DNA of 64,000 bases, taken from an uncultured Clostridia bacterium. GTDB taxonomy: Bacteria > Bacillota > Clostridia > Christensenellales > CAMQZB01. A program made the position numbers and the translations under genes. Under the pieces are notes generated by a model. That model had not been told where the DNA came from, made no database searches, and saw only the letters and a program-made list of their open reading frames with translations. The stretch covers positions 15,877-79,876 of the forward strand of contig CAMQZB010000001.1 in the NCBI GenBank assembly GCA_947039455.1. The letters run 5' to 3'. Shown in pieces: positions 15,609 through 42,001 of this stretch; position 1 is the first letter of the stretch, and each line of letters starts with the position of its first letter.

Positions 15609-15872
15609 ATGAAATTAGAAGATGCAGTAATTGCAAGAATTGAGGAGTTGAAAGGAATTCACGGATACACGCAATATAGATTATCGGAAGAATCAGGTGT
15701 GCCACAAACTACACTTATTTCTATTAAAAGAAAAAGAAGCAAAGATGTTGGAATTAGCAATATTTGGAAAATTAGTAGTGGTTTTGGAATAACTGTAATT
15801 GACTTTTTTAGTTCGCCATTATTTGAAAATATTGAACAAGATATAATAAAAAATATCAGCGAAATTAAATAA
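15609..15872 (+). CDS. XRE-family HTH protein
   Basis: HTH core GYTQYRLSEESGVPQTTLISIKR. 87 aa. Divergent from the SLOG gene. Confidence 0.7.
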   Translation: MKLEDAVIARIEELKGIHGYTQYRLSEESGVPQTTLISIKRKRSKDVGISNIWKISSGFGITVIDFFSSPLFENIEQDIIKNISEIK

Positions 15873-15878
15873 ATTATT

Positions 15879-15910
15879 AAACTCAAATTGTTATAATTTG
15901 AGTTTTTTAT
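15879..15910 (+). terminator. Intrinsic terminator
   Basis: 11-bp stem aaactcaaatt/aatttgagttt followed by a T-run. Confidence 0.8.
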
Positions 15911-16037
15911 TTTACAAAGTTTGGTTAACCTTACGGTAACTTGTAATTTTTTCTAAAGTGTGATAAAATATATGAAACCAAAAGAAAGAATATATTGTTT
16001 ATATTATTGAAGGGTGAAATGATAATGGGGGCGCGAA

Positions 16038-16589
16038 ATGTTTATAGTTTGTGGCATTGCAATAGATTCCAAAAACAGCGAAAAGTTTCAAGAAGTTTAT
16101 AACAGCTACGCAGGCAAGATGTTTGCGGTGGCTTTAAACTTGACGAAAAACAAGCAAGATGCGGAAGATGTTTTACAACAAACTTTGATTAGCGTATACA
16201 AAAACATATCGAAAATCGATAGTGTAACAAGCAGTCAAACCTCATGCTATTTAGTGAAAGCAACAAAAAATACTGCAATAAATCTTATGAAAAAACGTGG
16301 AAAAGATACAACGATGTGTATTGATTACATGGAAATTCAAAGTAAAACCAACGTTGAGAACGATGTGGAAATCAACTCTGACGTGGAAAAAGTTTATCAG
16401 CGTATTTTGTCACTTGATATGAAATATCGTGACGTGTTGACCTTGCATTATCTAAATCATTTCAAAACCCGTGAGATAGCAAAAATACTAAAAATCCCCA
16501 ACAACACAGTGAAAACCCGACTTGTTCGAGGAAGAAATATCTTGCTGTCTAAATTTTATAATGGAGAATTAAACAATGAAACAAAATAA
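16038..16589 (+). CDS. ECF-type sigma-70 family sigma factor
   Basis: Region 2 (AEDVLQQTLISVYKNI) and region 4 HTH (TREIAKILKIPNNTVKTRLVRGR). 183 aa. Confidence 0.8.
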   Translation: MFIVCGIAIDSKNSEKFQEVYNSYAGKMFAVALNLTKNKQDAEDVLQQTLISVYKNISKIDSVTSSQTSCYLVKATKNTAINLMKKRGKDTTMCIDYMEIQSKTNVENDVEINSDVEKVYQRILSLDMKYRDVLTLHYLNHFKTREIAKILKIPNNTVKTRLVRGRNILLSKFYNGELNNETK

Positions 16590-18054
16590 TAAAAACAATA
16601 TTAATAAAGAAGAAAATCAACTACTAGAACAAGCCTTTGATAAGTATGGAAAAGAGCTTGACGCTAGTTTTAAAGCGGTTCAACCTGAACAAGTTCCACA
16701 AGCAGTAAAGGATAAATTTCAACAAAAAAAGAAGAAACCAATCTTTAATTTCACCAAACTAAAACTAGGAATAGCAACCTCCCTTATGGCAGTTTTAATA
16801 GTCCTAGTATCAGTAATCAGCTTTGGAAACAGCGGAATTGACGGTGACGGATTAGTCTATGCAAGCGTGTATCCTGACGGATTGACTTCAACGGAATATC
16901 GTAAATACGCTAATGATTTCCAAGATAATGAAGATTATAAAACTAATGTAAACGATTTCGCAATGGCAACAGCATCTAAACTTTTAGGAGATAATGAAAG
17001 CAACGAAATTTACTCTCCACTAAGCTTATATTTCGCAATGACACTTTTAACAAGTGGTGCTGATGGTGAAACCCTAGAAGAACTTTTAGCTGTAATGAAC
17101 GAAACAACAGTTGATGAATTAGTGGATAATGCAAACACAATGTATAATGTGCTATACACAAATAACGACACATCAAAAACGCAAATTGCTAATTCATTGT
17201 GGATAGCGGATAATTTAAATTTCCAAAAAAACTATCTTGATTATGCGGAAAAGTTATTTGCTTCGATATATAATGTAGATTTTTCCGACCCCAAAACATT
17301 AGAACTTCAAAACCAATGGATAGAAGAAAACACAAATGGCACTTTAGATACTACCGATAGAAGAATTGACGCCAACGCAATTATTTCTATAATCAACACG
17401 ATATATTACTACTCAGAATGGAACGAAGAATTTGTTTCTGATGATAATATTGACGGTCAATTCACACTTGATAATGGCGAAATTATCGATACGGAATTTA
17501 TGACAAGGTACTTTAAAAAGAGTGCTACATTTTATGAAAATGAGAAATTTCAACGCTCATCATATGGACTTGATTTAAAGGACGGATCGAACGTGGTTTT
17601 CGTTCTTCCAAAAGACGGATATAATGTTTATGACTTACTAGAAACTGAAGATAGTTTAAATGAAAGTTTCTTTGGTGGAACAAAGTATAAAGGTGAATTA
17701 ACATATGAAATTCCAAAATTCACAGCAAAAAGCGAGTTTGATATTATTGAAACCATGAAAGAGCTAGGAGTGGAAAAAGCATTTGACGCTGATAATGCTG
17801 AATTTCAAAACATGTTAGCAGGAATTGAAACGGGCAGTGTATCAAAAATCAGTCAAAAAGCAAGTTTTTCTATTGACGAAAACGGCGTAGAAGCATCATC
17901 ATACACGGAAGTTGCACTGCGTGGTACTGGCGGACCTATCGCATCAATCTACAAATGCGACATGATACTTAACAAACCATTTTTGTACGGTATCGAAAAA
18001 GATGGTGTACTAATGTTCGTTGGAGTATGCAACAATCCAAATGAAATTAACTGA
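16576..18054 (+). CDS. Membrane-anchored serpin in anti-sigma position (short cytoplasmic N-terminus, one TM segment, extracytoplasmic serpin domain)
   Basis: 14-nt overlap with the sigma gene. TM segment LGIATSLMAVLIVLVSVISFG. Serpin hallmarks YSPLSLYFAMTLLTSGADGETLEEL, hinge ENGVEASSYTE and C-terminal NKPFLYGIEK...GVCNNP. Confidence 0.75.
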   Translation: MKQNNKNNINKEENQLLEQAFDKYGKELDASFKAVQPEQVPQAVKDKFQQKKKKPIFNFTKLKLGIATSLMAVLIVLVSVISFGNSGIDGDGLVYASVYPDGLTSTEYRKYANDFQDNEDYKTNVNDFAMATASKLLGDNESNEIYSPLSLYFAMTLLTSGADGETLEELLAVMNETTVDELVDNANTMYNVLYTNNDTSKTQIANSLWIADNLNFQKNYLDYAEKLFASIYNVDFSDPKTLELQNQWIEENTNGTLDTTDRRIDANAIISIINTIYYYSEWNEEFVSDDNIDGQFTLDNGEIIDTEFMTRYFKKSATFYENEKFQRSSYGLDLKDGSNVVFVLPKDGYNVYDLLETEDSLNESFFGGTKYKGELTYEIPKFTAKSEFDIIETMKELGVEKAFDADNAEFQNMLAGIETGSVSKISQKASFSIDENGVEASSYTEVALRGTGGPIASIYKCDMILNKPFLYGIEKDGVLMFVGVCNNPNEIN

Positions 18055-18136
18055 AAACATAAATCAAACTAACGTAGTAAAAAACACAAACTAAATCACC
18101 GAAAAAGCACTAAACTAAAAGAACGTAGCATATAAT

Positions 18137-18175
18137 AAAATGATGTTATTACAAAAGTAGTAACATCATTTTATA
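18137..18175 (+). terminator. Strong hairpin between the two serpin genes (terminator or 5'-UTR structure)
   Basis: 16-bp stem with 1 mismatch (aaaatgatgttattac/gtagtaacatcatttt), aaaa loop, then ttttat. It ends about 15 nt before the RBS of the next gene. Confidence 0.6.
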
Positions 18176-18202: not shown

Positions 18203-19414
18203 ATGAAGAATGACGTATTAGTATATCAAGCGGTATACCCAGATGATTTAACAGAAAATCAAGTAAATGAAACAAAAGCGGTATTGTCTAACATGCCCAA
18301 TTACATAAGAACGGTAAACGAATTTGCCCTGTCAACCGCAGCGGAATTGCTAGGTAGTGAACAAGGAAACGAAATATTTTCCCCTATTAGTTTATACTTT
18401 GCAATGGCAATTTTAACATCAGGAGCGGAAGGAAATACCCTTGAAGAATTGCTTGATGTTATGCACGGATCAAGCGTTGACCAAATCAACCAAAACGCCC
18501 ACGCAATGTATAATGCACTGTATATTAACAACGAAAAATCTAAATGTCAAATAGCAAATTCCCTTTGGCTAGATAAAACATTGACCTTTGCTGAACAGTA
18601 TTTAAACTACGCAAAAAACCTGTATAGTTCCCTTTACAGCGTAGATTACACAGACGATAACACAGCTAAATTGCAAAACAAATGGATAACGGAAAACACA
18701 AACAGCGTACTTGATGTATCCGAGAGAACAGTGCCAAAAGACACGGTTTTAACTATCCTAAACACAGTATATTTTAAATCCGCTTTCTACGATAATTTCG
18801 ACGAAAGAGCAACAGCAGTTGGGAAATTTGAACTAGCTGACGGTAGCGAAGTAGATGTTGATTACATGAAAAAATACTTCTATAGCGATGGCGAATTTAC
18901 CGATGGCGAAAAGTATTTGAGAACATCACACAACCTATATTTCAAAGACGATTCAAAAGCGATTTTTATACTACCAAAAGACGGATATACAGTTGATGAC
19001 CTAATAAAATCACAAGACACCCTTCAAGAATGTTTCTATGGCGGTGAAGATTTGTACGGTGAGTTGACCTATGAAATACCAAAATTCACAGCAAAAAGTG
19101 AGTACGGAATAGTGGATGCAATGAAAGCACTTGGAGTTCATGACGCATTTTGCGAATCTGCAAATTTCAGTAATATGATGTCTAACAGCGAAGGTGTGAT
19201 GGTGTCTGATATCTCACAACAAGCCAGTTTTGAGATAGACGAATACGGCGTGGAAGCGGCAGCATTCACGGAAATCCGCATGGTGAGAACCTCAATGCCA
19301 ATGCCACCAGAAAACAAATGCGAAATGATTTTCAACAAACCTTTCTTATACGGTATTGAAAAGAACGGAATTCTAATGTTTTTAGGAGTTTGTAACAACC
19401 CAAAAGAGATGTAA
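18203..19414 (+). CDS. Serpin paralog without signal peptide or TM segment
   Basis: Collinear with the ectodomain of 16576..18054 (FSPISLYFAMAILTSGAEGNTLEEL, hinge EYGVEAAAFTE, NKPFLYGIEK). In-frame stop at 18161-18163 and AAGGAGA RBS fix the start. Confidence 0.8.
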   Translation: MKNDVLVYQAVYPDDLTENQVNETKAVLSNMPNYIRTVNEFALSTAAELLGSEQGNEIFSPISLYFAMAILTSGAEGNTLEELLDVMHGSSVDQINQNAHAMYNALYINNEKSKCQIANSLWLDKTLTFAEQYLNYAKNLYSSLYSVDYTDDNTAKLQNKWITENTNSVLDVSERTVPKDTVLTILNTVYFKSAFYDNFDERATAVGKFELADGSEVDVDYMKKYFYSDGEFTDGEKYLRTSHNLYFKDDSKAIFILPKDGYTVDDLIKSQDTLQECFYGGEDLYGELTYEIPKFTAKSEYGIVDAMKALGVHDAFCESANFSNMMSNSEGVMVSDISQQASFEIDEYGVEAAAFTEIRMVRTSMPMPPENKCEMIFNKPFLYGIEKNGILMFLGVCNNPKEM

Positions 19415-19452: not shown

Positions 19453-19490
19453 AAAAAAGAGTAAAATTTCGATATTTTACTCTTTTTTTA
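19453..19490 (+). terminator. Intrinsic terminator
   Basis: Stem gagtaaaat/attttactc with A-run and T-run flanks. Confidence 0.75.
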
Positions 19491-19620
19491 ATGTAAAATA
19501 TTTGTGTTTATTACTTTATTATGATAAACTGTAAAAGGAAAATTAAAAATCAAAATTTACAAAAAAAGAAGTAAAAAGAGATTAAGGGAAAAGGAAATTA
19601 CATTTAGGAGGATTTATTCA

Positions 19621-33268: not shown

Positions 33269-36200
33269 ATGAAATGTATTAGAAGAGCAGTTGTTATTAC
33301 AACATGTATGGTATTTGTATTATCAGCAATTTTAGGGATAGTTATAGTTGTGGATAACGTTAGATATGATTATGAAAACGTAATCATGTCTGACAAAGTG
33401 GACTTCAGTGAAGGGTATAATGATATGGGGCAAGTGGCCGAAACCAGCTTGAACAACCCCATAATCAATGATCTTTCACCGAATTTACAACAATTCTCAA
33501 AAGATGAAGCCGATCAGGTAAATGATTCGGCTAATTTTGCGTTATCTGAAATGATGGCGGGATCAAATGAACTTATCGAGAGTAGTGAAAAAACATTGGA
33601 AAGATTGAACCAAAATGTTCCAGTGCCAAGATACAGTGGAGAGTATTTAGCAGAGTCAGCTCCAGCATTTAGCTGGCAAGATCCTAGTATTGTGAAAACA
33701 CCTCTACAAGGTACAGGAACTGAGATCGATCCATTTCAAATTTGGACTGGTGCGGATTTAGCACAAATGGTTCCAATGATTGCGGCTACACATGAAACAG
33801 GTAATAAAAAAGAATGGAATTATTTAGCATTTTATAAGCTAATGGACGATATAGATTTAGGTGAGCATGAATGGGAATCAATTGGTAGAGATAAGAAAGA
33901 ATTCCATGGTACTTTTTTAGGCAACAATAAAACAATTAGTAATTTATACTGTACATCTATTGGGGTGCAAAACGGGCTCAACGGGATTTATGGAGAAATG
34001 GGCTTATTTGGTACAACTTCATATTATGCAACAATAAAAGATTTAATAGTAGAGAATCCGTACATATTATATGCCTACGATGCAGGAGCTATAGTTACAA
34101 CTTCAAATGGTTTTCTAAAAAACTGTCACGTTGTTGGTGGTGAATTTAGATTAATCAAAGGTAATACAAAAGGTGATGATTGGAGTTATAATCATAATGG
34201 TTATGTAGGTGGATTAGTTGGTCAATCGACAGAACATGTAAATATTCAAAATTGTACTAACAGCAGTGATATTATAGGGTATCTAGGTGAAGATATGGAT
34301 CAGGCGACGGAATATATTGCAGGTGGTATAATTGGATCAGCCTACACTAGTTACGATTATATTGATTCGTATATATATAACTGTGCTAATAGTGGTAATT
34401 TAATTGATATGTCTGATGCCGGTGGAATTGCAGGTAATGCGTATCAAGGTAAAATGAGTTCTAGATTTTGGATAGAAAAATGTTATAACAAAGGTGATCT
34501 GCAAGCTGGTCGATCTATAGGTGGAATTGTTGCCAGTTTATATATGGAAACCACTATTCTTAATTCTGTTAATGTGGGAAATATAATTGGTATCAACCTT
34601 TACTATTATTCTGAAAACAATCAATCAACTTTAGGTGGAATAGTTGGTGATGCTAATGGCGTAGGGCAGTGGAACACGCCAAGTAAAGATTATATATTTA
34701 TTGAAAATTGTTTCAATGCTGGAAATATTACCAGTCAGAATAAATTTTCAGGTGGAATTTTAGGAACTTTGTCAGGTCAATGGATAATTGATAATACTGT
34801 ACCTGTGGAAGATATGATAGGTAGAAAAGTGAAAAACTGTTATAATTCTGGTATTATGATGGCTGGTGATGGTTCTACGCGAGAAGGCGGAGTAATAGGA
34901 TGTATAGCCCATGTAATTGGTAGTGAGACGTCAGAGCTGTTTAACAGTATGGAAAACTGTTATTATTTAGAAGGCACAAGTCCTAGGGGTGTTGCAAATT
35001 CTTCTTACGGTGATAGTATAGCTTATGTAGTAGCAATCGACGGATCTATAATAAACGGACCAGCGGGATATCCAGTTGAATTAGTAACAGCATTAAATCA
35101 GTGGAAAACAACTGAATATGATAAATTTACTTGGAAAGACAAAGGTACGGCTTCAGTAACAGATACATACTTATATATGGGAACAAAAACATACTGGAAA
35201 GACCCTGAAAACGTAGCAACAAACTTCCAAAGCGGTAACGGTAGTGAAAACAGCCCATACTTAATATCAACCCAGCAACAACTTTCTTTGTTGGCACATA
35301 ACATAAATCTATCAATAAAGAATACTTCTCACTATAAATTAGTAAGCAATATAGACTTATCAGCCCATGAATGGGAGCCAATAGGTAAAAGCAAATCAAC
35401 TCCATTTGGCGGAACATTTGACGGAAATAATATGATAATCACAGGAATGTCAATAACAGACGCCACGGATTATTCAGGATTATTTGGTTATGTAACAGGG
35501 CCTAAAATTGATAATGTACAAATAATCAATGCTGAAGTTACAGGTGGATCACAAGTAGGTGGATTAGTAGGTGAAAACACATCTGCAACAATAAGAAACA
35601 GTTCATATACAGGAAAAGTCACAGGAACTAACAACGTTGGCGGATTAGTAGGCGTAAGCAAAGGACTAATCGCAAATAGTTATTCAGCAGGAACAGTAAG
35701 TGGAACATCAAATGTAGGCGGATTTATTGGAAGCAATAGCAATAAGATAAATAACTGTTACAGTTCATCAACCGCTAAGGGAACAAGTGCAGTTGGTGGA
35801 TTCATTGGAAACAATACAAACGCAGCAGTGTCAAATTCATACTGGATAAACACAGCAACCAATAGCATAGGATCTGGAACAGCAACAAATGAAACTGTTA
35901 AAACTTTCAAAACGGGTGGTACATTTACCACTCCATTCACAACGCCAATTTATGGAAAAACTATACCAACGAATTTGTTTACAGCGTTAAACCAAGGCGG
36001 ATTAGTGGTAGTAAATCCAACTGAATATAAAGAATGGACAAATGGAACAAATGGATTTGCATTACACACAACAAGATTTCAACAATCAGTTTTGAATTTT
36101 GCAGCAAACCAAGAAAGTTTAAATACAACAACTTTTAGCAATGAAATATATAACAAAGCAGTTGGCAACATAACATATCAAACAAGCTCAATAGTTGGTG

Positions 36201-39200
36201 GAACAGGTGCTGGAGCAATGTCCTATTCAATAAAACCAACAACATCAATTACAGGCAATATGTTTATGGACGATACAAATAAATTAACAATTCCACATGC
36301 AGGAATATATAATATTACAGCAACGAAAGCCCAAGGAACAGTAGACGGAAAAATATATGCACCAAGAGAATTTACATATACAGCAACAGTAAATAAAGCA
36401 ACAGACAACGCATTTACTGAAACGTCAATTGTAGGTTGGACTTATGGTGAATTTGAGTACGTAAAAAACAGCCCTGTTTACACAACAAAATACGGAAATA
36501 ACGTAGTAATCAGTTATGAAACAGCAAGCGGAAGTTCATTATTAAAAACTCCTTCAAATGCAGGACGATATAAAGTAGTTGGCAAAGTAGATGAGAATCC
36601 GAACTTCAACGCAGTCTCAGCAGTTGCAATTGATTTTGAAATAACAAAAGCAAACTACGATATGAGTAAAGCCAACCTTAAGGATATTTCAAAAACTTAT
36701 AACGGAAAAGTACAAACAATAAATTCACATACACTGCCTACAGGCGCGGACGAAATAAAATTAGTTGCAGAGTATACTGATGGAATAACAAACGTAGGTG
36801 AAAAAAGCATTACAGCAACATTTAGTACAACTTCAAACAACTATTTCACACCAGCCATAAGCACAGCAAAACTAACAATTACACCAGCAGAAACACCAAA
36901 TATTACCACATTGGGACTTGACGCAACAAGAGTTTATGGAGCAAAACTAAGTGATTTTAAATTTACTGGTGGTGTTATAAAAGGAACAAATATTGACGCA
37001 ATTAATGGAAGCGGTTGGGCTTGGAGTAGTGAAACCCCAGAAACAATTTTTCCAACTGTTGGAAACAAAGGCCACGTAGCAAAATACAATGTTCCAATAG
37101 TAGATGAGCGTAATTATCTATGGAATAATTTGCCACAAGACTATATATATTCTAACGGTGTAATAACAAAAACTATCGCCCCAATTATCACAAATGCAAC
37201 AATAAAAACTCCAACAATTACAATATTCAACGACAATTACGATGGAAAAACTCACTCTATTGATATTATCGGAGCGGAAACAGTAAACAGACAAGAGCTT
37301 ACATATCAATACAAAGTAGGTAGTGGAAATTTTTCAGAAACCAACCCAACATTTAAAAATCAAGGCGTATACCTAATAAATTACCAAATAACAGCGCCAA
37401 ATCACAGTACAATTACAGGTAGCGAAACAATCAAAATTTCTCTGAAACCGCTTGAATGGATATCAGGAACAGCAAATTTACGTATTTACAACGGAAATGA
37501 TCAAGGGACAGTGAAAATTGCACCTACATTAAGTGGCGAAATTGAGAATGAAACAGTAGAAATAACTATTGGTGAAATCACATTTGCAACAGCCAATGCA
37601 GGAAACCAAGCTGTGACAGCTACAGGTTATGGAATTGAGGGGGATATATCAAAAAACTACACAATTAAAGTACAACCAATATTTGAAAACCAAGAGATTC
37701 TACCAAAAGAAATCGATGCCGTTTGGGGTGAAAATAATGTAGTAACAGACTTTATTTACAACACAAAACAACAAAACCCAACAGCAACAGCGGATACAGA
37801 AGTGAGTATATTCGGAACAAAAGAAGAAGTTTCATTGACATATACAATCAATGAAAAATCTGACGGAATAGTTTCAGGAATTCACAATGCAATCGCAACA
37901 ATCAGCAATGATCCAAATGGAAATTACCTATTGAAAAATACAAATATTGACTATAATATCCTTGATGCAGACATCAATAAAGTAGAAATCCAAGGAAGAA
38001 TTAACCCAGCTGTAACAGCTGAACAGTCCGTATTATTAACAAAAGAGCATACTTCAAACTACGGTGATTTAACGGTTGTGTGGAGTAAATCAACTGATAA
38101 TGGAGCAACATATACACAAGTTTTAGCTGATGATGAAACCTTCGTTGCAAACACACTTTACAGAGCAACAGTAACAGCTGAAGCAAATGTGAACTATAAT
38201 TTTGCAACTAATATTACAGTAGAGATTGATGATAAAACTGATGTAATAGTAACAAACCAGCAAAATTTAATAAAAATCACAATGGATTATGAAGCTCTTG
38301 ACCTACTTAAACAATCTAGCATTACATTAGGAGGAATAACTGGTGGTGCAGAAACTGAACTTTCGGGATTAACAATCGGCAAAGGAAACATTGACACAAA
38401 ATTAAACAAATTTAACTTACCATTAACAGGTGGAAATACGGAAAAAACAGTAGCTATTACAGGATCAACAGCTGTGGGAACTCATGAAAACGACGTGCTT
38501 ACAGTAACGACTGCAGGTGAAATGTTGATTACCGTGACTGCTGAAGAAACTGATGAATATGAAGAAAAAATAGTAACATATGTTATAGAAATCACAAAAG
38601 GAAGCAACGCAATTGCATTTACTGATGTGAACAAAAAACTATATATCTTCGACAATCACTATACAAATGAACTAATAAATAAATCAACAGCAAAAACCAA
38701 CAACATAGAATTTACAAGTAGTGATGCAGGAATTACTGTATCAAAAGAAGGAAAACTTGACATAGTAGATTTCCCAACAGCCGTAACAACAATTACAGCA
38801 GTCCTTGCTGAAAATGAGTTGTGGTATAGTAACACAGATACCTACGAAGTTAATGTCCCATCTGACAAACTAGTTCTAAATGTAGAAATAAAACCAACAG
38901 CAACGGATTTATATTACCAAGATACATTAAGTGAAAGTAGCATATCAGGTGGTGTTATAAAATCTGAAGGCGAAACAGTTGAAGGCACATGGATTTGGAT
39001 TATAGACTATGAAAACCTAACAGCAATAGCCGATGAAAACACATATAAAGCAACATTTGTGCCATCATATAACCCAAGTAAATATGAAACGATGACTGCT
39101 GATATTCCAGTAAAAGTAAAAAATAGAACAGTTTTATCTATCGAAAAAATTGAAGATATAACTACTAAACCGCTAGGAACTGAATTTGCCGATCTACAAT

Positions 39201-42001
39201 TACCAACAGAAGTTCAGGTAACTGTTTCAAGTTTAGACAGTGTCAAGGGCGAAGCGTGGAACGTAAAAACTCCAGTCAGTTATACTGCTGGAATTTATCA
39301 ACCATCAATGAGCGGAATACAAACTATCAACGGAACAATCACAACAGTTGAAGGACTTGTTGCAGACAGCGTAACTGGTTTTGAAGTTAAAGTAAGCCTA
39401 GGGGAAGCGGTAGTAGGATATGTTCCAGAATTCAACGGTGATACAGTAGTTAAATACGACGGAAAAGCACATAATCTTGAAATAAAAAACTCTCCAAACA
39501 CAGAAAAATTTGTTGAAAGCGTAACAATATTATATACAACAGCGGATAACGAAGTGGTAACTGAACCAATTAATGCAGGCACTTATACGGCAACTGCAAG
39601 ATTTAAAATGAAGGGCGATTACGCGGAAATTGCTCCTAAAGAAATTATAATAGCTATCAACCCTGCTGAACTTATAGTTAATAAAACTGAAGTAGCATTA
39701 GAGAAAGAATACGACGGAAGCAAGGTTTTAGACAAGGAGAAATTCACTGAAGAAAACTACGAAATCGATGGATTAGTTGATACTGATTCTGTGGAACTTG
39801 AAGTAGTTAGAGCAAGATTTAATACTAAAAATGCCGATGCAAAAACAGTAGAAGTTACATATGAACTTTCAGGTGCAAACGCGTCAAACTATGTTTTAGA
39901 AAATGAAAAAGCAACATTTGACGGTGCAATTTCACCATTACAAATTAGTTTCACTGATGAAATATCAGTAGACAGTCAAGCTATCGACGAAGAAGCTCCA
40001 TTGTTTATGCAATATAGTTTAGGTGGTGAATTAGAAGATGAGAAAGTGAATCTTGAAATTGAATATAAAGACGTAACAAAAGAAATAGGCACGCAAGAAG
40101 TAGAAATTTCCGATATTAAAATAGCAGCAATTGGCTACAACGCAATCAACTATGCCGCCCCTGTAATACCAACTGATGTAACAGTTGATATCACAGGACT
40201 AAGCGGAATTAATATTGCTATGGAAAATCTAACTCGTGAATACGGCACAATCAAAGTTGAAGGGGAAACAGTGGAAATAACTGTTGACCCAATGGAGTAT
40301 TCAGCAAGTGACAAAGACACAAATGTTGATATTTTTGGAACAATGGTGCTGATTATTGACAACACGGATTTATCCACTGGAAAATATTTAAACCAAGGCG
40401 AGCATATGGTGAAATATAATTTCACAGCCAATAATGGAGTAGAAGAAAATGGAAGAATAGCTCTTACAATCACACAAAAAGAGTTATCTTTAGAAGAAAT
40501 TAAGATCAGCCTATTTAAATATGCCGACGGAAGTTGTGTAATACCATTCACAGGCGGAGAAATAATTGCAAGCACAATCATGACAAATGATGTAGTAAAA
40601 AGTATGATTACAGTTACTTCAAGCGAAGTGACTGGTGAAGTAGACGTAACTTCAAAAAGAATATTGCAAGGTGCTGATGCGGGTAATTATACAATTGCAG
40701 TAGGCGAAGAAGTTTCACTTGGACAGTTCAAAATCATTCCAGGAACTGAAAATGAGTCAATTGATAAAATCATACCGCTTTTCCCAAATTCAGTTGATTA
40801 TCTAGACATCGAAGCAATTGAAAATGCAATGAAAGAATCTCTAATTTCATCATCAATGACGGCTGAAGAAGTAGAAATATTTAGCGATCTATACTATGAA
40901 ATCTATGCCCCTGAAAAAGTTAAAGCATCATTAGGCGGAAGAGAAGTAGTAATCTCAGCAAAAGGCAAATTATCTGAAGAAATCCCAACAAGAACAGCGA
41001 AAACATCTGTTGAAAATCATGGCGAAGTATATGGAATTATTTCAAGTATCGGCTTAACTGGAAACGAAATTGACGTAACAATCAACACAGCAATTTCAAA
41101 TATTTCAGGCTATGACTTTGAGAACAAGAACTTAGATATCCTAGATGAAAAAATAGTCAAAAACGCATTCAAAGTTTCTATTAAATGTAATGCGGTAGAA
41201 AAACAAGTAATTCAAGATAAAAACGTGGTTATTAAGTTGAAAGTAGGCAACGAAGTTAACGGATATAACCCTGATATTTATATTTCAAATGCTCAAAATG
41301 AAATAGTAGAAAAAGCCGAAAATATTAAATTTATAACTGAAAACGGAGAAACTTTCGCATTATTCTCAGCTAGCCAAGTTGGCGAAGTATTCGTAGTTGC
41401 AAGCGAAGAACAAGAAAGTAGTGGTTCGTCAAGAAGGAAAAAATCTCGTAAAACACCATACTGGACAAAAATTTTAGAAGAGCTTGACAAAACTAATGAG
41501 GAAGAAATGTATATTTCAGCGATTCTTGGTGACGATTTAGTACCAGATAACGTTTTAGAAGAACACAAATCAAAAGATATGACAATCGAATTGGAGTTCA
41601 CAGAAGGCGCAATAATCATCACAGCGGAAATGTCTGATGGAGTTGAGTATATACTTTCTGCATACACTTACGAAGACCTAATGAACTTATTTGCGGTGGA
41701 TGAAGATGGAAAACCGATTCCTGAACCAGAAGCTGATGAACCAGAAAGCAACCCGTTTGCTTTTGCATTGTGGATGATACTGTTGATATTGGTATTAATG
41801 ATAATAATCACAATTATTATTGTAGTACGTAAAGAAAAACAAAGAAAGCTAGCTGAATTACTTGAACAAGAAAACACTCTAAAACTAGCATCACAAGAAG
41901 TAGTTGATATAAGCGACGAAGAAAAAACTGAAATAGAAGAAGAAGAAGAAGAAGAAGAAGAAGAAGAAGAAGAAGAAGAAGAAACTAAAGAAGATAAATA
42001 A
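33269..42001 (+). CDS. Giant (2910 aa) surface protein: N-terminal hydrophobic anchor/signal, GLUG-type beta-helix repeats, many MBG/Ig-like repeats, C-terminal TM helix and acidic tail
   Basis: GLFG motifs (EMGLFGTT, YSGLFGYV). Tandem repeats of about 22 aa, VGGLVG/VGGFIG. Recurring YNGK/YDGK strands. C-terminal FAFALWMILLILVLMIIITIIIVV followed by RKEKQRK and E16. No LPXTG motif seen. Confidence 0.85.
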   Translation: MKCIRRAVVITTCMVFVLSAILGIVIVVDNVRYDYENVIMSDKVDFSEGYNDMGQVAETSLNNPIINDLSPNLQQFSKDEADQVNDSANFALSEMMAGSNELIESSEKTLERLNQNVPVPRYSGEYLAESAPAFSWQDPSIVKTPLQGTGTEIDPFQIWTGADLAQMVPMIAATHETGNKKEWNYLAFYKLMDDIDLGEHEWESIGRDKKEFHGTFLGNNKTISNLYCTSIGVQNGLNGIYGEMGLFGTTSYYATIKDLIVENPYILYAYDAGAIVTTSNGFLKNCHVVGGEFRLIKGNTKGDDWSYNHNGYVGGLVGQSTEHVNIQNCTNSSDIIGYLGEDMDQATEYIAGGIIGSAYTSYDYIDSYIYNCANSGNLIDMSDAGGIAGNAYQGKMSSRFWIEKCYNKGDLQAGRSIGGIVASLYMETTILNSVNVGNIIGINLYYYSENNQSTLGGIVGDANGVGQWNTPSKDYIFIENCFNAGNITSQNKFSGGILGTLSGQWIIDNTVPVEDMIGRKVKNCYNSGIMMAGDGSTREGGVIGCIAHVIGSETSELFNSMENCYYLEGTSPRGVANSSYGDSIAYVVAIDGSIINGPAGYPVELVTALNQWKTTEYDKFTWKDKGTASVTDTYLYMGTKTYWKDPENVATNFQSGNGSENSPYLISTQQQLSLLAHNINLSIKNTSHYKLVSNIDLSAHEWEPIGKSKSTPFGGTFDGNNMIITGMSITDATDYSGLFGYVTGPKIDNVQIINAEVTGGSQVGGLVGENTSATIRNSSYTGKVTGTNNVGGLVGVSKGLIANSYSAGTVSGTSNVGGFIGSNSNKINNCYSSSTAKGTSAVGGFIGNNTNAAVSNSYWINTATNSIGSGTATNETVKTFKTGGTFTTPFTTPIYGKTIPTNLFTALNQGGLVVVNPTEYKEWTNGTNGFALHTTRFQQSVLNFAANQESLNTTTFSNEIYNKAVGNITYQTSSIVGGTGAGAMSYSIKPTTSITGNMFMDDTNKLTIPHAGIYNITATKAQGTVDGKIYAPREFTYTATVNKATDNAFTETSIVGWTYGEFEYVKNSPVYTTKYGNNVVISYETASGSSLLKTPSNAGRYKVVGKVDENPNFNAVSAVAIDFEITKANYDMSKANLKDISKTYNGKVQTINSHTLPTGADEIKLVAEYTDGITNVGEKSITATFSTTSNNYFTPAISTAKLTITPAETPNITTLGLDATRVYGAKLSDFKFTGGVIKGTNIDAINGSGWAWSSETPETIFPTVGNKGHVAKYNVPIVDERNYLWNNLPQDYIYSNGVITKTIAPIITNATIKTPTITIFNDNYDGKTHSIDIIGAETVNRQELTYQYKVGSGNFSETNPTFKNQGVYLINYQITAPNHSTITGSETIKISLKPLEWISGTANLRIYNGNDQGTVKIAPTLSGEIENETVEITIGEITFATANAGNQAVTATGYGIEGDISKNYTIKVQPIFENQEILPKEIDAVWGENNVVTDFIYNTKQQNPTATADTEVSIFGTKEEVSLTYTINEKSDGIVSGIHNAIATISNDPNGNYLLKNTNIDYNILDADINKVEIQGRINPAVTAEQSVLLTKEHTSNYGDLTVVWSKSTDNGATYTQVLADDETFVANTLYRATVTAEANVNYNFATNITVEIDDKTDVIVTNQQNLIKITMDYEALDLLKQSSITLGGITGGAETELSGLTIGKGNIDTKLNKFNLPLTGGNTEKTVAITGSTAVGTHENDVLTVTTAGEMLITVTAEETDEYEEKIVTYVIEITKGSNAIAFTDVNKKLYIFDNHYTNELINKSTAKTNNIEFTSSDAGITVSKEGKLDIVDFPTAVTTITAVLAENELWYSNTDTYEVNVPSDKLVLNVEIKPTATDLYYQDTLSESSISGGVIKSEGETVEGTWIWIIDYENLTAIADENTYKATFVPSYNPSKYETMTADIPVKVKNRTVLSIEKIEDITTKPLGTEFADLQLPTEVQVTVSSLDSVKGEAWNVKTPVSYTAGIYQPSMSGIQTINGTITTVEGLVADSVTGFEVKVSLGEAVVGYVPEFNGDTVVKYDGKAHNLEIKNSPNTEKFVESVTILYTTADNEVVTEPINAGTYTATARFKMKGDYAEIAPKEIIIAINPAELIVNKTEVALEKEYDGSKVLDKEKFTEENYEIDGLVDTDSVELEVVRARFNTKNADAKTVEVTYELSGANASNYVLENEKATFDGAISPLQISFTDEISVDSQAIDEEAPLFMQYSLGGELEDEKVNLEIEYKDVTKEIGTQEVEISDIKIAAIGYNAINYAAPVIPTDVTVDITGLSGINIAMENLTREYGTIKVEGETVEITVDPMEYSASDKDTNVDIFGTMVLIIDNTDLSTGKYLNQGEHMVKYNFTANNGVEENGRIALTITQKELSLEEIKISLFKYADGSCVIPFTGGEIIASTIMTNDVVKSMITVTSSEVTGEVDVTSKRILQGADAGNYTIAVGEEVSLGQFKIIPGTENESIDKIIPLFPNSVDYLDIEAIENAMKESLISSSMTAEEVEIFSDLYYEIYAPEKVKASLGGREVVISAKGKLSEEIPTRTAKTSVENHGEVYGIISSIGLTGNEIDVTINTAISNISGYDFENKNLDILDEKIVKNAFKVSIKCNAVEKQVIQDKNVVIKLKVGNEVNGYNPDIYISNAQNEIVEKAENIKFITENGETFALFSASQVGEVFVVASEEQESSGSSRRKKSRKTPYWTKILEELDKTNEEEMYISAILGDDLVPDNVLEEHKSKDMTIELEFTEGAIIITAEMSDGVEYILSAYTYEDLMNLFAVDEDGKPIPEPEADEPESNPFAFALWMILLILVLMIIITIIIVVRKEKQRKLAELLEQENTLKLASQEVVDISDEEKTEIEEEEEEEEEEEEEEEETKEDK
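41936..41983 (+). repeat. (GAA)16 microsatellite encoding poly-Glu in the cytoplasmic tail
   Basis: 48 nt of perfect GAA repeats, in frame with the ORF. Confidence 0.95.

Follow-up and report, generated by a model that had tools for sequence, protein, structure and literature searches.

Divergent bait loops in two neighbouring clostridial serpins, one of them predicted to be membrane-anchored and coupled to a sigma factor gene

Why would a bacterium keep two neighbouring serpin genes whose products have one scaffold but unlike baits? The question is raised by the window analysed here, a 64,000-nucleotide stretch from the genome of an uncultured Clostridia bacterium, in which two adjacent genes encode the serpin-family protease inhibitors that we call serpin A and serpin B. 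A first-pass annotation had noticed that the two proteins align closely toward their C-termini except for a 13-residue block at the reactive-centre loop, and had proposed either a swapped loop with two different protease targets or a sensor and an effector tuned differently. The explanation that we consider best overall, with a probability of roughly 0.6, is that the two bait loops have diverged and would differ in specificity, and that serpin A, which is encoded directly behind a gene for an extracytoplasmic function (ECF) sigma factor, may act as a sigma-sequestering, protease-bait anti-sigma factor.

The variable block and the reactive-centre loop

Serpins A and B both give full-length Pfam matches to the serpin superfamily (PF00079) and are modelled with the serpin fold (Table 1). 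They align over 401 residues with a single gap and 50% identity. The translations given for the two 13-residue blocks in the first-pass annotation were reproduced exactly, and the blocks do differ strongly; calling them unrelated slightly overstated the case, as two of the 13 residues (a Thr and a Pro) are common to both. By comparison, the 30 residues on either side of the block are together 71% identical between A and B. Raw identity is equally poor in 24 of 391 windows of 13 residues, the worst of which lie in the linker before the serpin core; measured relative to its flanks, identity falls more steeply at the block than anywhere else in the alignment (rank 2 of 351, the first-ranked window overlapping the block; column-shuffle P = 0.023).

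Several lines of evidence place the block in the distal reactive-centre loop, where it had been assigned on first reading. It begins three residues past the hinge motif E-x-G-V-E-A-x-x-[YF]-T and ends before the s1C motif [ML]I[LF]NKPF, and HMMER aligns it with the loops of solved serpins that include Serpin48, miropin, conserpin, and antichymotrypsin. In the AlphaFold models (mean predicted local distance difference test score, pLDDT, of 82.8 for A and 89.8 for B), the only low-confidence stretch of the serpin domain coincides with the block (residues 450-462 of A and 363-375 of B). A canonical count from P17 agrees with the proposed P5-P8' span: in A, E435 is P17, A447 is P5, T451 is P1, P454 is P3', and Y459 is P8', and in B, E347 is P17, R359 is P5, R362 is P2, and T363 is P1. 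As had also been stated, the loop is six residues longer than that of alpha-1-antitrypsin, and all of the extra length is on the prime side (2 + 4 gap columns against Conserpin-AATRCL).

The hinges preceding the block look capable of inserting into a beta-sheet. The consensus for inhibitory serpins from P17 to P9 is E-x-G-T-E-A-A-A-A, with small, uncharged residues at the inserting positions (PMC8233489). The corresponding residues are E-N-G-V-E-A-S-S-Y in A and E-Y-G-V-E-A-A-A-F in B, which match the consensus at P17, P15, P13, and P12. The P17 Glu, P15 Gly, P12 Ala, and P8 Thr (E435, G437, A440, and T444 in A) are invariant in 120 homologs, neither hinge has a charged residue or a proline at the buried even positions, and both AlphaFold models place P15-P4/P3 as strand s4A. 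The hinges are thus compatible with loop insertion, and the concern raised in the first-pass annotation, that they might not be, is not borne out. When model A was compared with solved structures using Foldseek, 415 matches were obtained at E<=0.001; all of the top 50 listed are serpins, and the best are latent or cleaved forms. Because the closest solved structures are in these states, both models are taken to represent the loop-inserted (latent-like) state. Such models are compatible with an insertable hinge modelled as s4A; they are not proof of inhibition and say nothing of metastability. Given the placement of the block and the insertable hinge, different protease specificities for the two loops would be the natural reading.

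Table 1. Coordinates of the features discussed, as positions in the window.
Feature	Position	Strand	Description
ECF-type sigma-70 family gene	16038..16589	+	183 aa; regions 2 and 4 only; Sigma70_r2 E 6.7e-11, Sigma70_r4_2 E 7.6e-13
Serpin A	16576..18054	+	492 aa; Pfam Serpin E 1.2e-58, residues 124-488; gene call in L002
Cytoplasmic N-terminal region of serpin A (predicted)	16576..16764	+	Residues 1-63; predicted helices 9-34 and 42-49, then KKKK; AlphaFold pLDDT ~80 for residues 11-30
Predicted transmembrane helix of serpin A	16765..16824	+	~L64-F83, read from sequence; AlphaFold helix 68-81
Hinge of serpin A, P17-P8	17878..17907	+	ENGVEASSYT; by alignment to hinges of solved serpins
Distal reactive-centre loop of serpin A, canonical P5-P8'	17914..17952	+	Encodes ALRGTGGPIASIY
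AT-rich hairpin between A and B	18135..18174	+	18-bp; -20.2 kcal/mol, z = -8.5; ~10 nt before the ribosome-binding site of B
Serpin B	18203..19414	+	403 aa; Pfam Serpin E 2.3e-65; start aligns with residue 88 of A
Hinge of serpin B, P17-P8	19241..19270	+	EYGVEAAAFT; by alignment to solved serpins and homologs
Distal reactive-centre loop of serpin B, canonical P5-P8'	19277..19315	+	Encodes RMVRTSMPMPPEN
Intrinsic terminator after serpin B	19453..19495	+	15-bp stem, then U run; -14 kcal/mol, z = -5.3

Origin of the loop difference and predicted targets

A metagenome scaffold from a second species (L001) encodes orthologs of both serpins, A' and B'. It carries, in order, the end of a sigma gene, the anchored serpin A', serpin B' without a signal peptide, and a gene for a Na/H antiporter. 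When the four proteins are aligned, A is closest to A' (74% identity) and B to B' (67%), and in a neighbour-joining tree, from which the partial A' was left out, A and the B/B' pair share one long branch. Since each paralog groups with its own ortholog, the duplication is older than the split between the species. The dN/dS analysis (nonsynonymous against synonymous substitution rates) that the first-pass annotation had suggested meets saturated synonymous sites in every comparison (proportion of differing sites, pS, 0.64-0.81), and only the contrast in nonsynonymous differences (pN) is informative. Between A and A' the block is the least conserved window of the protein, with 4 of 13 residues identical, and pN is 0.56 in the block against 0.13 in the rest. 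Between B and B', 9 of 13 residues of the block are identical, on a par with the whole protein, and pN is 0.195 in the block against 0.209 in the rest. Among variants of at least 90% identity, the loops of both genes are identical. Thus, the loop of A is the fastest-evolving part of the protein, and the loop of B is conserved across species.

How the loops came to differ can be read in part from these comparisons. The idea of a swapped cassette, in which recombination or gene conversion would have homogenised the scaffold and exchanged only the loop-coding block, draws on the sharp boundary between flanks that are 71% identical in protein sequence and a block that is 15% identical. However, pS between A and B is saturated both in the flanks, at 0.70, and in the remainder of the gene, at 0.73; what keeps the flanks alike is therefore selection on the protein and not recent gene conversion or exchange. 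The grouping of A with A' and of B with B' likewise argues for old divergence by point substitution rather than recombination, and neither repeats nor alternative cassettes were seen. A swap is accordingly very improbable, and this part of the first-pass annotation does not survive. A more serious competitor, if still an unlikely one, holds that A is mainly a membrane-anchored regulator or scaffold that need not inhibit anything; its distal loop would then be drifting, and nothing about specificity could be read from the A/B difference. The pN of 0.56 in the A/A' block, near the saturated pS and far above the 0.13 of the rest of the gene, would suit such a relaxation of constraint, as would the loss in A' of the P3' Pro that is nearly invariant in the family. 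Against it, A and A' keep the length of the loop (14 residues to the Cys) and Leu-Arg at P4-P3, their hinge and s1C flanks are 81% identical, and three variants at >=90% identity have the same loop as A, a comparison of low power. Moreover, fast loop evolution is the usual, textbook signature of retargeting in inhibitory serpins. The comparisons show two bacterial serpins that arose by an ancient duplication, with a scaffold held by strong purifying selection and with loops that have changed through ordinary substitution.

The wider family provides a background for both loops. A scan of species-representative genomes returned 80 loci (L003-L082), all from Bacillota and mostly from Clostridia, whose serpins are 33-41% identical to serpin A. 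In 81 clostridial relatives the loop is conserved as approximately DYAGAAMPEGR, with Tyr at P4 in 80%, Gly at P2 in 90%, Ala at P1' in 83%, and Pro at P3' in 96%; it is about as conserved as the average alignment column and is not hypervariable. This conservation, which is unusual for serpins, holds in both the lipoprotein and the sigma-linked forms of the family. The small residues of the family P3-P1 sequence, A-G-A, are of the kind that elastase-like proteases prefer, and they also satisfy the Ala-x-Ala rule of signal peptidase I. Serpins A and B and their L001 orthologs depart from the family loop and have a three-residue insertion on the prime side after the conserved Pro; the loops of A and A' have only Leu-Arg at P4-P3 in common.

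For B, a more specific prediction can be made. In miropin, the Lys368-Thr369 bond (P2-P1) and two neighbouring bonds (P3-P2 and P1-P1') are reactive (bioRxiv 10.1101/2025.09.05.674453). The P4-P3' residues of B, M-V-R-T-S-M-P, fall in the same register as M-V-K-T-S-S-P of miropin. Because the core of the B loop resembles that of miropin, an Arg-specific protease is the predicted target, against which B probably uses the Arg362-Thr363 (P2-P1) bond. Serpin A would present L-R-G-T-G-G-P to a different, lineage-specific target.

A cysteine directly follows the variable block in both proteins (KC[DE]MI; Cys461 of A at 17956-17958 and Cys373 of B at 19319-19321). It is present in A, A', B, and B', and Ala occupies the site in 90% of relatives; a second cysteine (GVCNNP) is nearly invariant across the family. 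Near s1C, the extracellular copy might conceivably form a disulfide specific to this clade.

A serpin encoded behind a sigma factor gene

The gene preceding serpin A encodes an ECF sigma factor, having regions 2 and 4 only and scoring 70.6 bits with the NCBIfam model TIGR02937 (sigma70-ECF), for which the cut-off is 42.9. The last 14 nt of this gene, with its stop, are also the first 14 nt of serpin A, and the same overlap is found in L001 and in a further locus, L090, where a sigma factor 44% identical to that of the window is followed by a 479-aa anchored serpin with the motif QAFDxYxKE but a family-typical loop. In its fuller form, [IL][KE][QE]AF[DV]xY[GA]K[ED], the motif is common to the N-terminus of A and those encoded in L001 and L090. 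The KKKK that precedes the 20-residue hydrophobic helix of A indicates an N-in orientation, and the helix is followed by an acidic, Gly-rich (Gly/Asp) linker and then the serpin domain. Thus, the partner gene directly downstream of the sigma gene encodes a predicted N-in single-pass membrane protein, as seen from the overlap, the helix, and the recurrence in relatives. We conclude from these sequence features that serpin A is a predicted type II membrane protein whose gene appears to be translationally coupled to that of the ECF sigma factor. The likeness of A to anti-sigma factors is putative and rests on this architecture; a large-database search with residues 1-92 of A gave no matches.

Sigma-serpin pairs were present in about 37 of the 80 related loci. 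The N-termini of these serpins fall into lipoprotein or signal-peptide forms without an adjacent sigma gene, and forms with approximately MKEKKIFDAITxVxDELIEEA, a basic stretch, and a membrane helix. This motif and an adjacent sigma gene occurred together in 35 loci and were both missing from 42; two loci had the motif without the sigma gene, and two had the sigma gene without the motif, both with variants of it. Independent gene calls give overlaps of 4 nt. We defined an FDAIT-type module, which is uncurated, as approximately KKxFDAITxVxDELIEEA, a basic stretch, and a membrane helix behind a sigma gene of ~185 aa. A profile of the module matched 2,625 cluster representatives among 1.84 billion proteins. 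Among 96 longer matches, six were serpins, most had no Pfam domain, and one was alpha-2-macroglobulin-like (MG2, bait-region domain, A2M). For all three of the non-serpin carriers that were looked up, including the macroglobulin-like protein, the gene directly follows a 185-aa sigma gene and overlaps it by 4 nt, and the FDAIT module is therefore best regarded as a candidate general sigma-partner domain with interchangeable ectodomains. By their domain content, two of the ectodomain types carried by the module, the serpin and the alpha-2-macroglobulin-like type, are predicted bait-type protease inhibitors. The N-terminus of serpin A appears to represent a second type (QAFDxYxKE) in the same genomic arrangement.

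The macroglobulin-like protein (1,667 aa; L087:312-5869, metagenome contig SRR21023574_10898) contains Big_5, MG2, bait-region, and A2M domains, and has the N-terminal module "KKIYDAITDVSDSLIDEA" and a membrane helix as in the sigma-linked serpins; its gene, as noted, overlaps a 185-aa sigma gene by 4 nt. In L024, L034, L039, L045-L047, L051, L064, L078, and L079, serpins that are nested among the sigma-linked relatives in the tree have no adjacent sigma gene, and their N-terminal motif is mostly truncated or degenerate, being intact in L024 and L045. The pattern suggests that the cytoplasmic module decays once the sigma gene has been lost. At L091:3001-4232, a sigma gene whose product is 30% identical to that of the window overlaps by 4 nt the gene downstream of it, which encodes a single-pass protein of 221 aa; this protein has a DUF4367 ectodomain, and its N-terminus (DVLNAALREV...) is of the same general style as that of serpin A.

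Serpin B lies in a different compartment by prediction. Only 13 codons separate the upstream stop from its ATG, which is preceded by the ribosome-binding site AAGGAG, and B can therefore have no signal peptide; its ortholog B' also lacks one. With no signal peptide in either species, B could not easily be an extracellular effector against the protease that A would meet. Thus, of the earlier suggestion of a sensor and an effector, the sensor half gains unexpected support, A being the ectodomain of a sigma-coupled single-pass protein, and the effector half is hard to sustain: given the predicted compartment of B, a simple pair in which sensor and effector meet the same extracellular protease is disfavoured. 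The hairpin between A and B is kept in L001, where the apical stem differs and pairing is retained. Its possible roles are leaky termination, RNA processing, and control of the translation of B. Upstream of it is a TAGCATATA(T)AT stretch that is likewise conserved. A terminator consensus scan missed both this hairpin and the terminator after B because they are AT-rich.

In the mechanism that we propose, the cytoplasmic N-terminus of A would sequester the sigma factor, and the serpin ectodomain would serve as a protease-bait sensor. More speculatively, attack on the bait loop could lead to removal of the ectodomain and intramembrane cleavage; release of the sigma factor could then re-induce the operon, so that the cell would make new inhibitor as the single-use one is spent. 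Equally speculatively, expression of B might depend on transcription that reads through the intergenic hairpin, and the protein might work in the cytoplasm or once the cell has lysed.

One alternative is that the sigma gene and the serpin A gene share a transcript and nothing more: A would use its N-terminus only as a signal anchor, and something else would regulate the sigma factor. We consider this possible, if the weaker account: the lack of any known anti-sigma domain in the Pfam and NCBIfam searches is what would be expected of it, but a mere anchor would not require 60 cytoplasmic residues with a conserved motif and confidently predicted helices. Across the relatives, the cytoplasmic motif and the sigma gene occur together almost without exception, sigma-less relatives have degenerate N-termini or are lipoproteins, and the same (FDAIT) module is found behind the same kind of sigma gene on unrelated ectodomains. 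As for B, one could suppose that it is a decaying partial duplicate without function, given that it has neither anchor nor signal peptide. Yet its frame is intact in several variants and, at 67% identity, in a second species; pN between B and B' is 0.21 against a pS of 0.74; the gene has a good ribosome-binding site and its own terminator; its loop is conserved; and an intracellular serpin paralog is documented in Eubacterium siraeum (PMC5127057). We give the supposition almost no credence.

Several observations nevertheless weigh against our reading of A as an anti-sigma factor with a retuned bait, and of the two loops as differing in specificity. Residues 1-95 of A gave only chance-level matches in Pfam (E<=10) and NCBIfam (E<=1), and the cytoplasmic region contains no Cys/His (Zn) motif of the kind that class I anti-sigma factors often have (H-x3-C-x2-C); with no profile-recognisable anti-sigma domain, such as zf-HC2 or RskA, and no such motif, we do not file A as a class I anti-sigma factor. 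The FDAIT motif is not present in the N-terminus of A, which has no detectable homology to the module (hhalign probability 5%). No protease gene was found among the ten open reading frames flanking the serpins. A promoter consensus scan returned 20 promoter-like sites where 17.3 were expected and identified no sigma-dependent promoter; inspection by eye likewise found no convincing ECF-type promoter that the A-B spacer has in common with the sequence before the sigma gene. The rate at which the loop of A evolves is close to neutral, as would be expected from relaxed constraint no less than from retuning. Both hinges have Val at P14 (consensus Thr) and an aromatic residue, Tyr in A and Phe in B, at P9 (consensus Ala). 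Val at P14 also occurs in the solved chain 3OZQ (Serpin48; EEGVEAAAAT), which we take to be inhibitory. P1 cannot be fixed from sequence, and we offer only the canonical count and the analogy with miropin; the long loop, the register shift seen in miropin, and the arbitrary placement of gaps by HMMER bear out the caution urged on this point at first reading. Finally, the target of B, and any role for it in a sensing circuit when it has no export signal, are left unexplained.

A bolder and more tentative proposal, which we hold to be possible but less than probable, extends the idea beyond the window. In Clostridia, ECF anti-sigma factors may have suicide-type protease inhibitors as their extracytoplasmic sensors, many of these inhibitors being serpins and at least one alpha-2-macroglobulin-like. 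By taking the bait, a protease would convert or strip the ectodomain, license intramembrane cleavage, and free the sigma factor, so that attack would be sensed directly and the consumed inhibitor replaced; to this scheme the window would add a cytoplasmic paralog and the retuning of both baits. Why free-living and commensal bacteria keep serpins is an open question (PMC8233489), and a recurrent, coupled pair of ECF sigma factor and membrane serpin would be a concrete answer, in which the inhibitor doubles as the receptor of a transcriptional circuit. If true, this would be a new class of input for ECF signalling, the nearest analogue being the sensing of lysozyme by RsiV, and the loop sequence would set both the inhibited target and the sensed signal. 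The A/B pair would then be a natural experiment, with one scaffold and different baits in different compartments. The context, that is, the sigma coupling and the anchor, matters more than the loop difference alone.

Other features of the surroundings were noted. Just upstream of the sigma gene is a gene for a small XRE-type HTH_3 regulator (15609-15872) with its own terminator hairpin (15880-15913), and a palindromic stretch, GGTTAACC / TTACGGTAA, lies at ~15922-15940, between this regulator and the sigma gene. Further along the window, at 33269-42001, is a 2,910-aa open reading frame with GLUG and YDG domains, which probably encodes a large surface protein and is apparently unrelated to the serpins.

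Comparison with known systems

The closest precedent for the loop difference is the pair Siropin 1 and Siropin 2 of E. siraeum, which are 63% identical outside the signal sequence and 48% identical in their reactive-centre loops, and which both inhibit neutrophil elastase and proteinase 3 (PMC5127057). Like the pair in the window, they are two paralogs in one gut clostridial genome, one predicted to be intracellular and the other extracellular (PMC5127057). Compared by description, they differ in that neither a sigma link nor an anti-sigma-like, membrane-anchored N-terminus is reported for them, whereas the extracellular copy in the window is of predicted type II topology and ECF-coupled. Divergence of loops between serpin paralogs is textbook; the loop finding alone is thus ordinary, and the siropins are a direct precedent for it. 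Miropin of Tannerella forsythia (PDB 5NCS), a surface-anchored bacterial serpin, is among the best solved-structure matches to both proteins (E 7e-27 for A and 7.5e-32 for B). It is, however, a lipoprotein of a diderm and has no sigma coupling, whereas B has no export signal and Arg in place of the Lys of miropin; the loop of A is unlike that of miropin.

Interchangeable sensors are familiar from the RsgI/SigI systems of Clostridium thermocellum, a family of sigma/anti-sigma pairs in which a conserved cytoplasmic module is joined to varied extracellular sensors. In those systems the sigma factor is of the SigI type, the N-terminus is RsgI_N, and the sensors bind carbohydrates and are not protease inhibitors. 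Regulation of a serpin by its own circuit has a parallel in Bifidobacterium breve, whose serpin is reportedly autoregulated through a two-component system, to go by the title of a 2012 paper by Alvarez-Martin et al., and is said to be induced by proteases. The sensor of the B. breve operon is a histidine kinase, whereas sensing for the ECF system of the window would fall to the serpin itself.

The nearest architectural likeness is to RsiV/sigma-V and RsiP/sigma-P of Bacillota, in which an ECF sigma gene is likewise followed by a gene for an N-in single-pass membrane protein (PMC4183432, PMC8844934). In RsiV and RsiP the ectodomain directly recognises an external enzyme or antibiotic signal, and cleavage at site 1 and then at site 2 activates the system (PMC4183432, PMC8844934). 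The literature searched yielded no account of an anti-sigma factor whose ectodomain is a serpin or a macroglobulin. The system predicted for the window differs from RsiV and RsiP in that its ectodomain is a serpin, a suicide bait for proteases, and that its N-terminus matches no curated anti-sigma family; the sigma-coupled, membrane-anchored serpin A thus hints at an undescribed protease-sensing switch.

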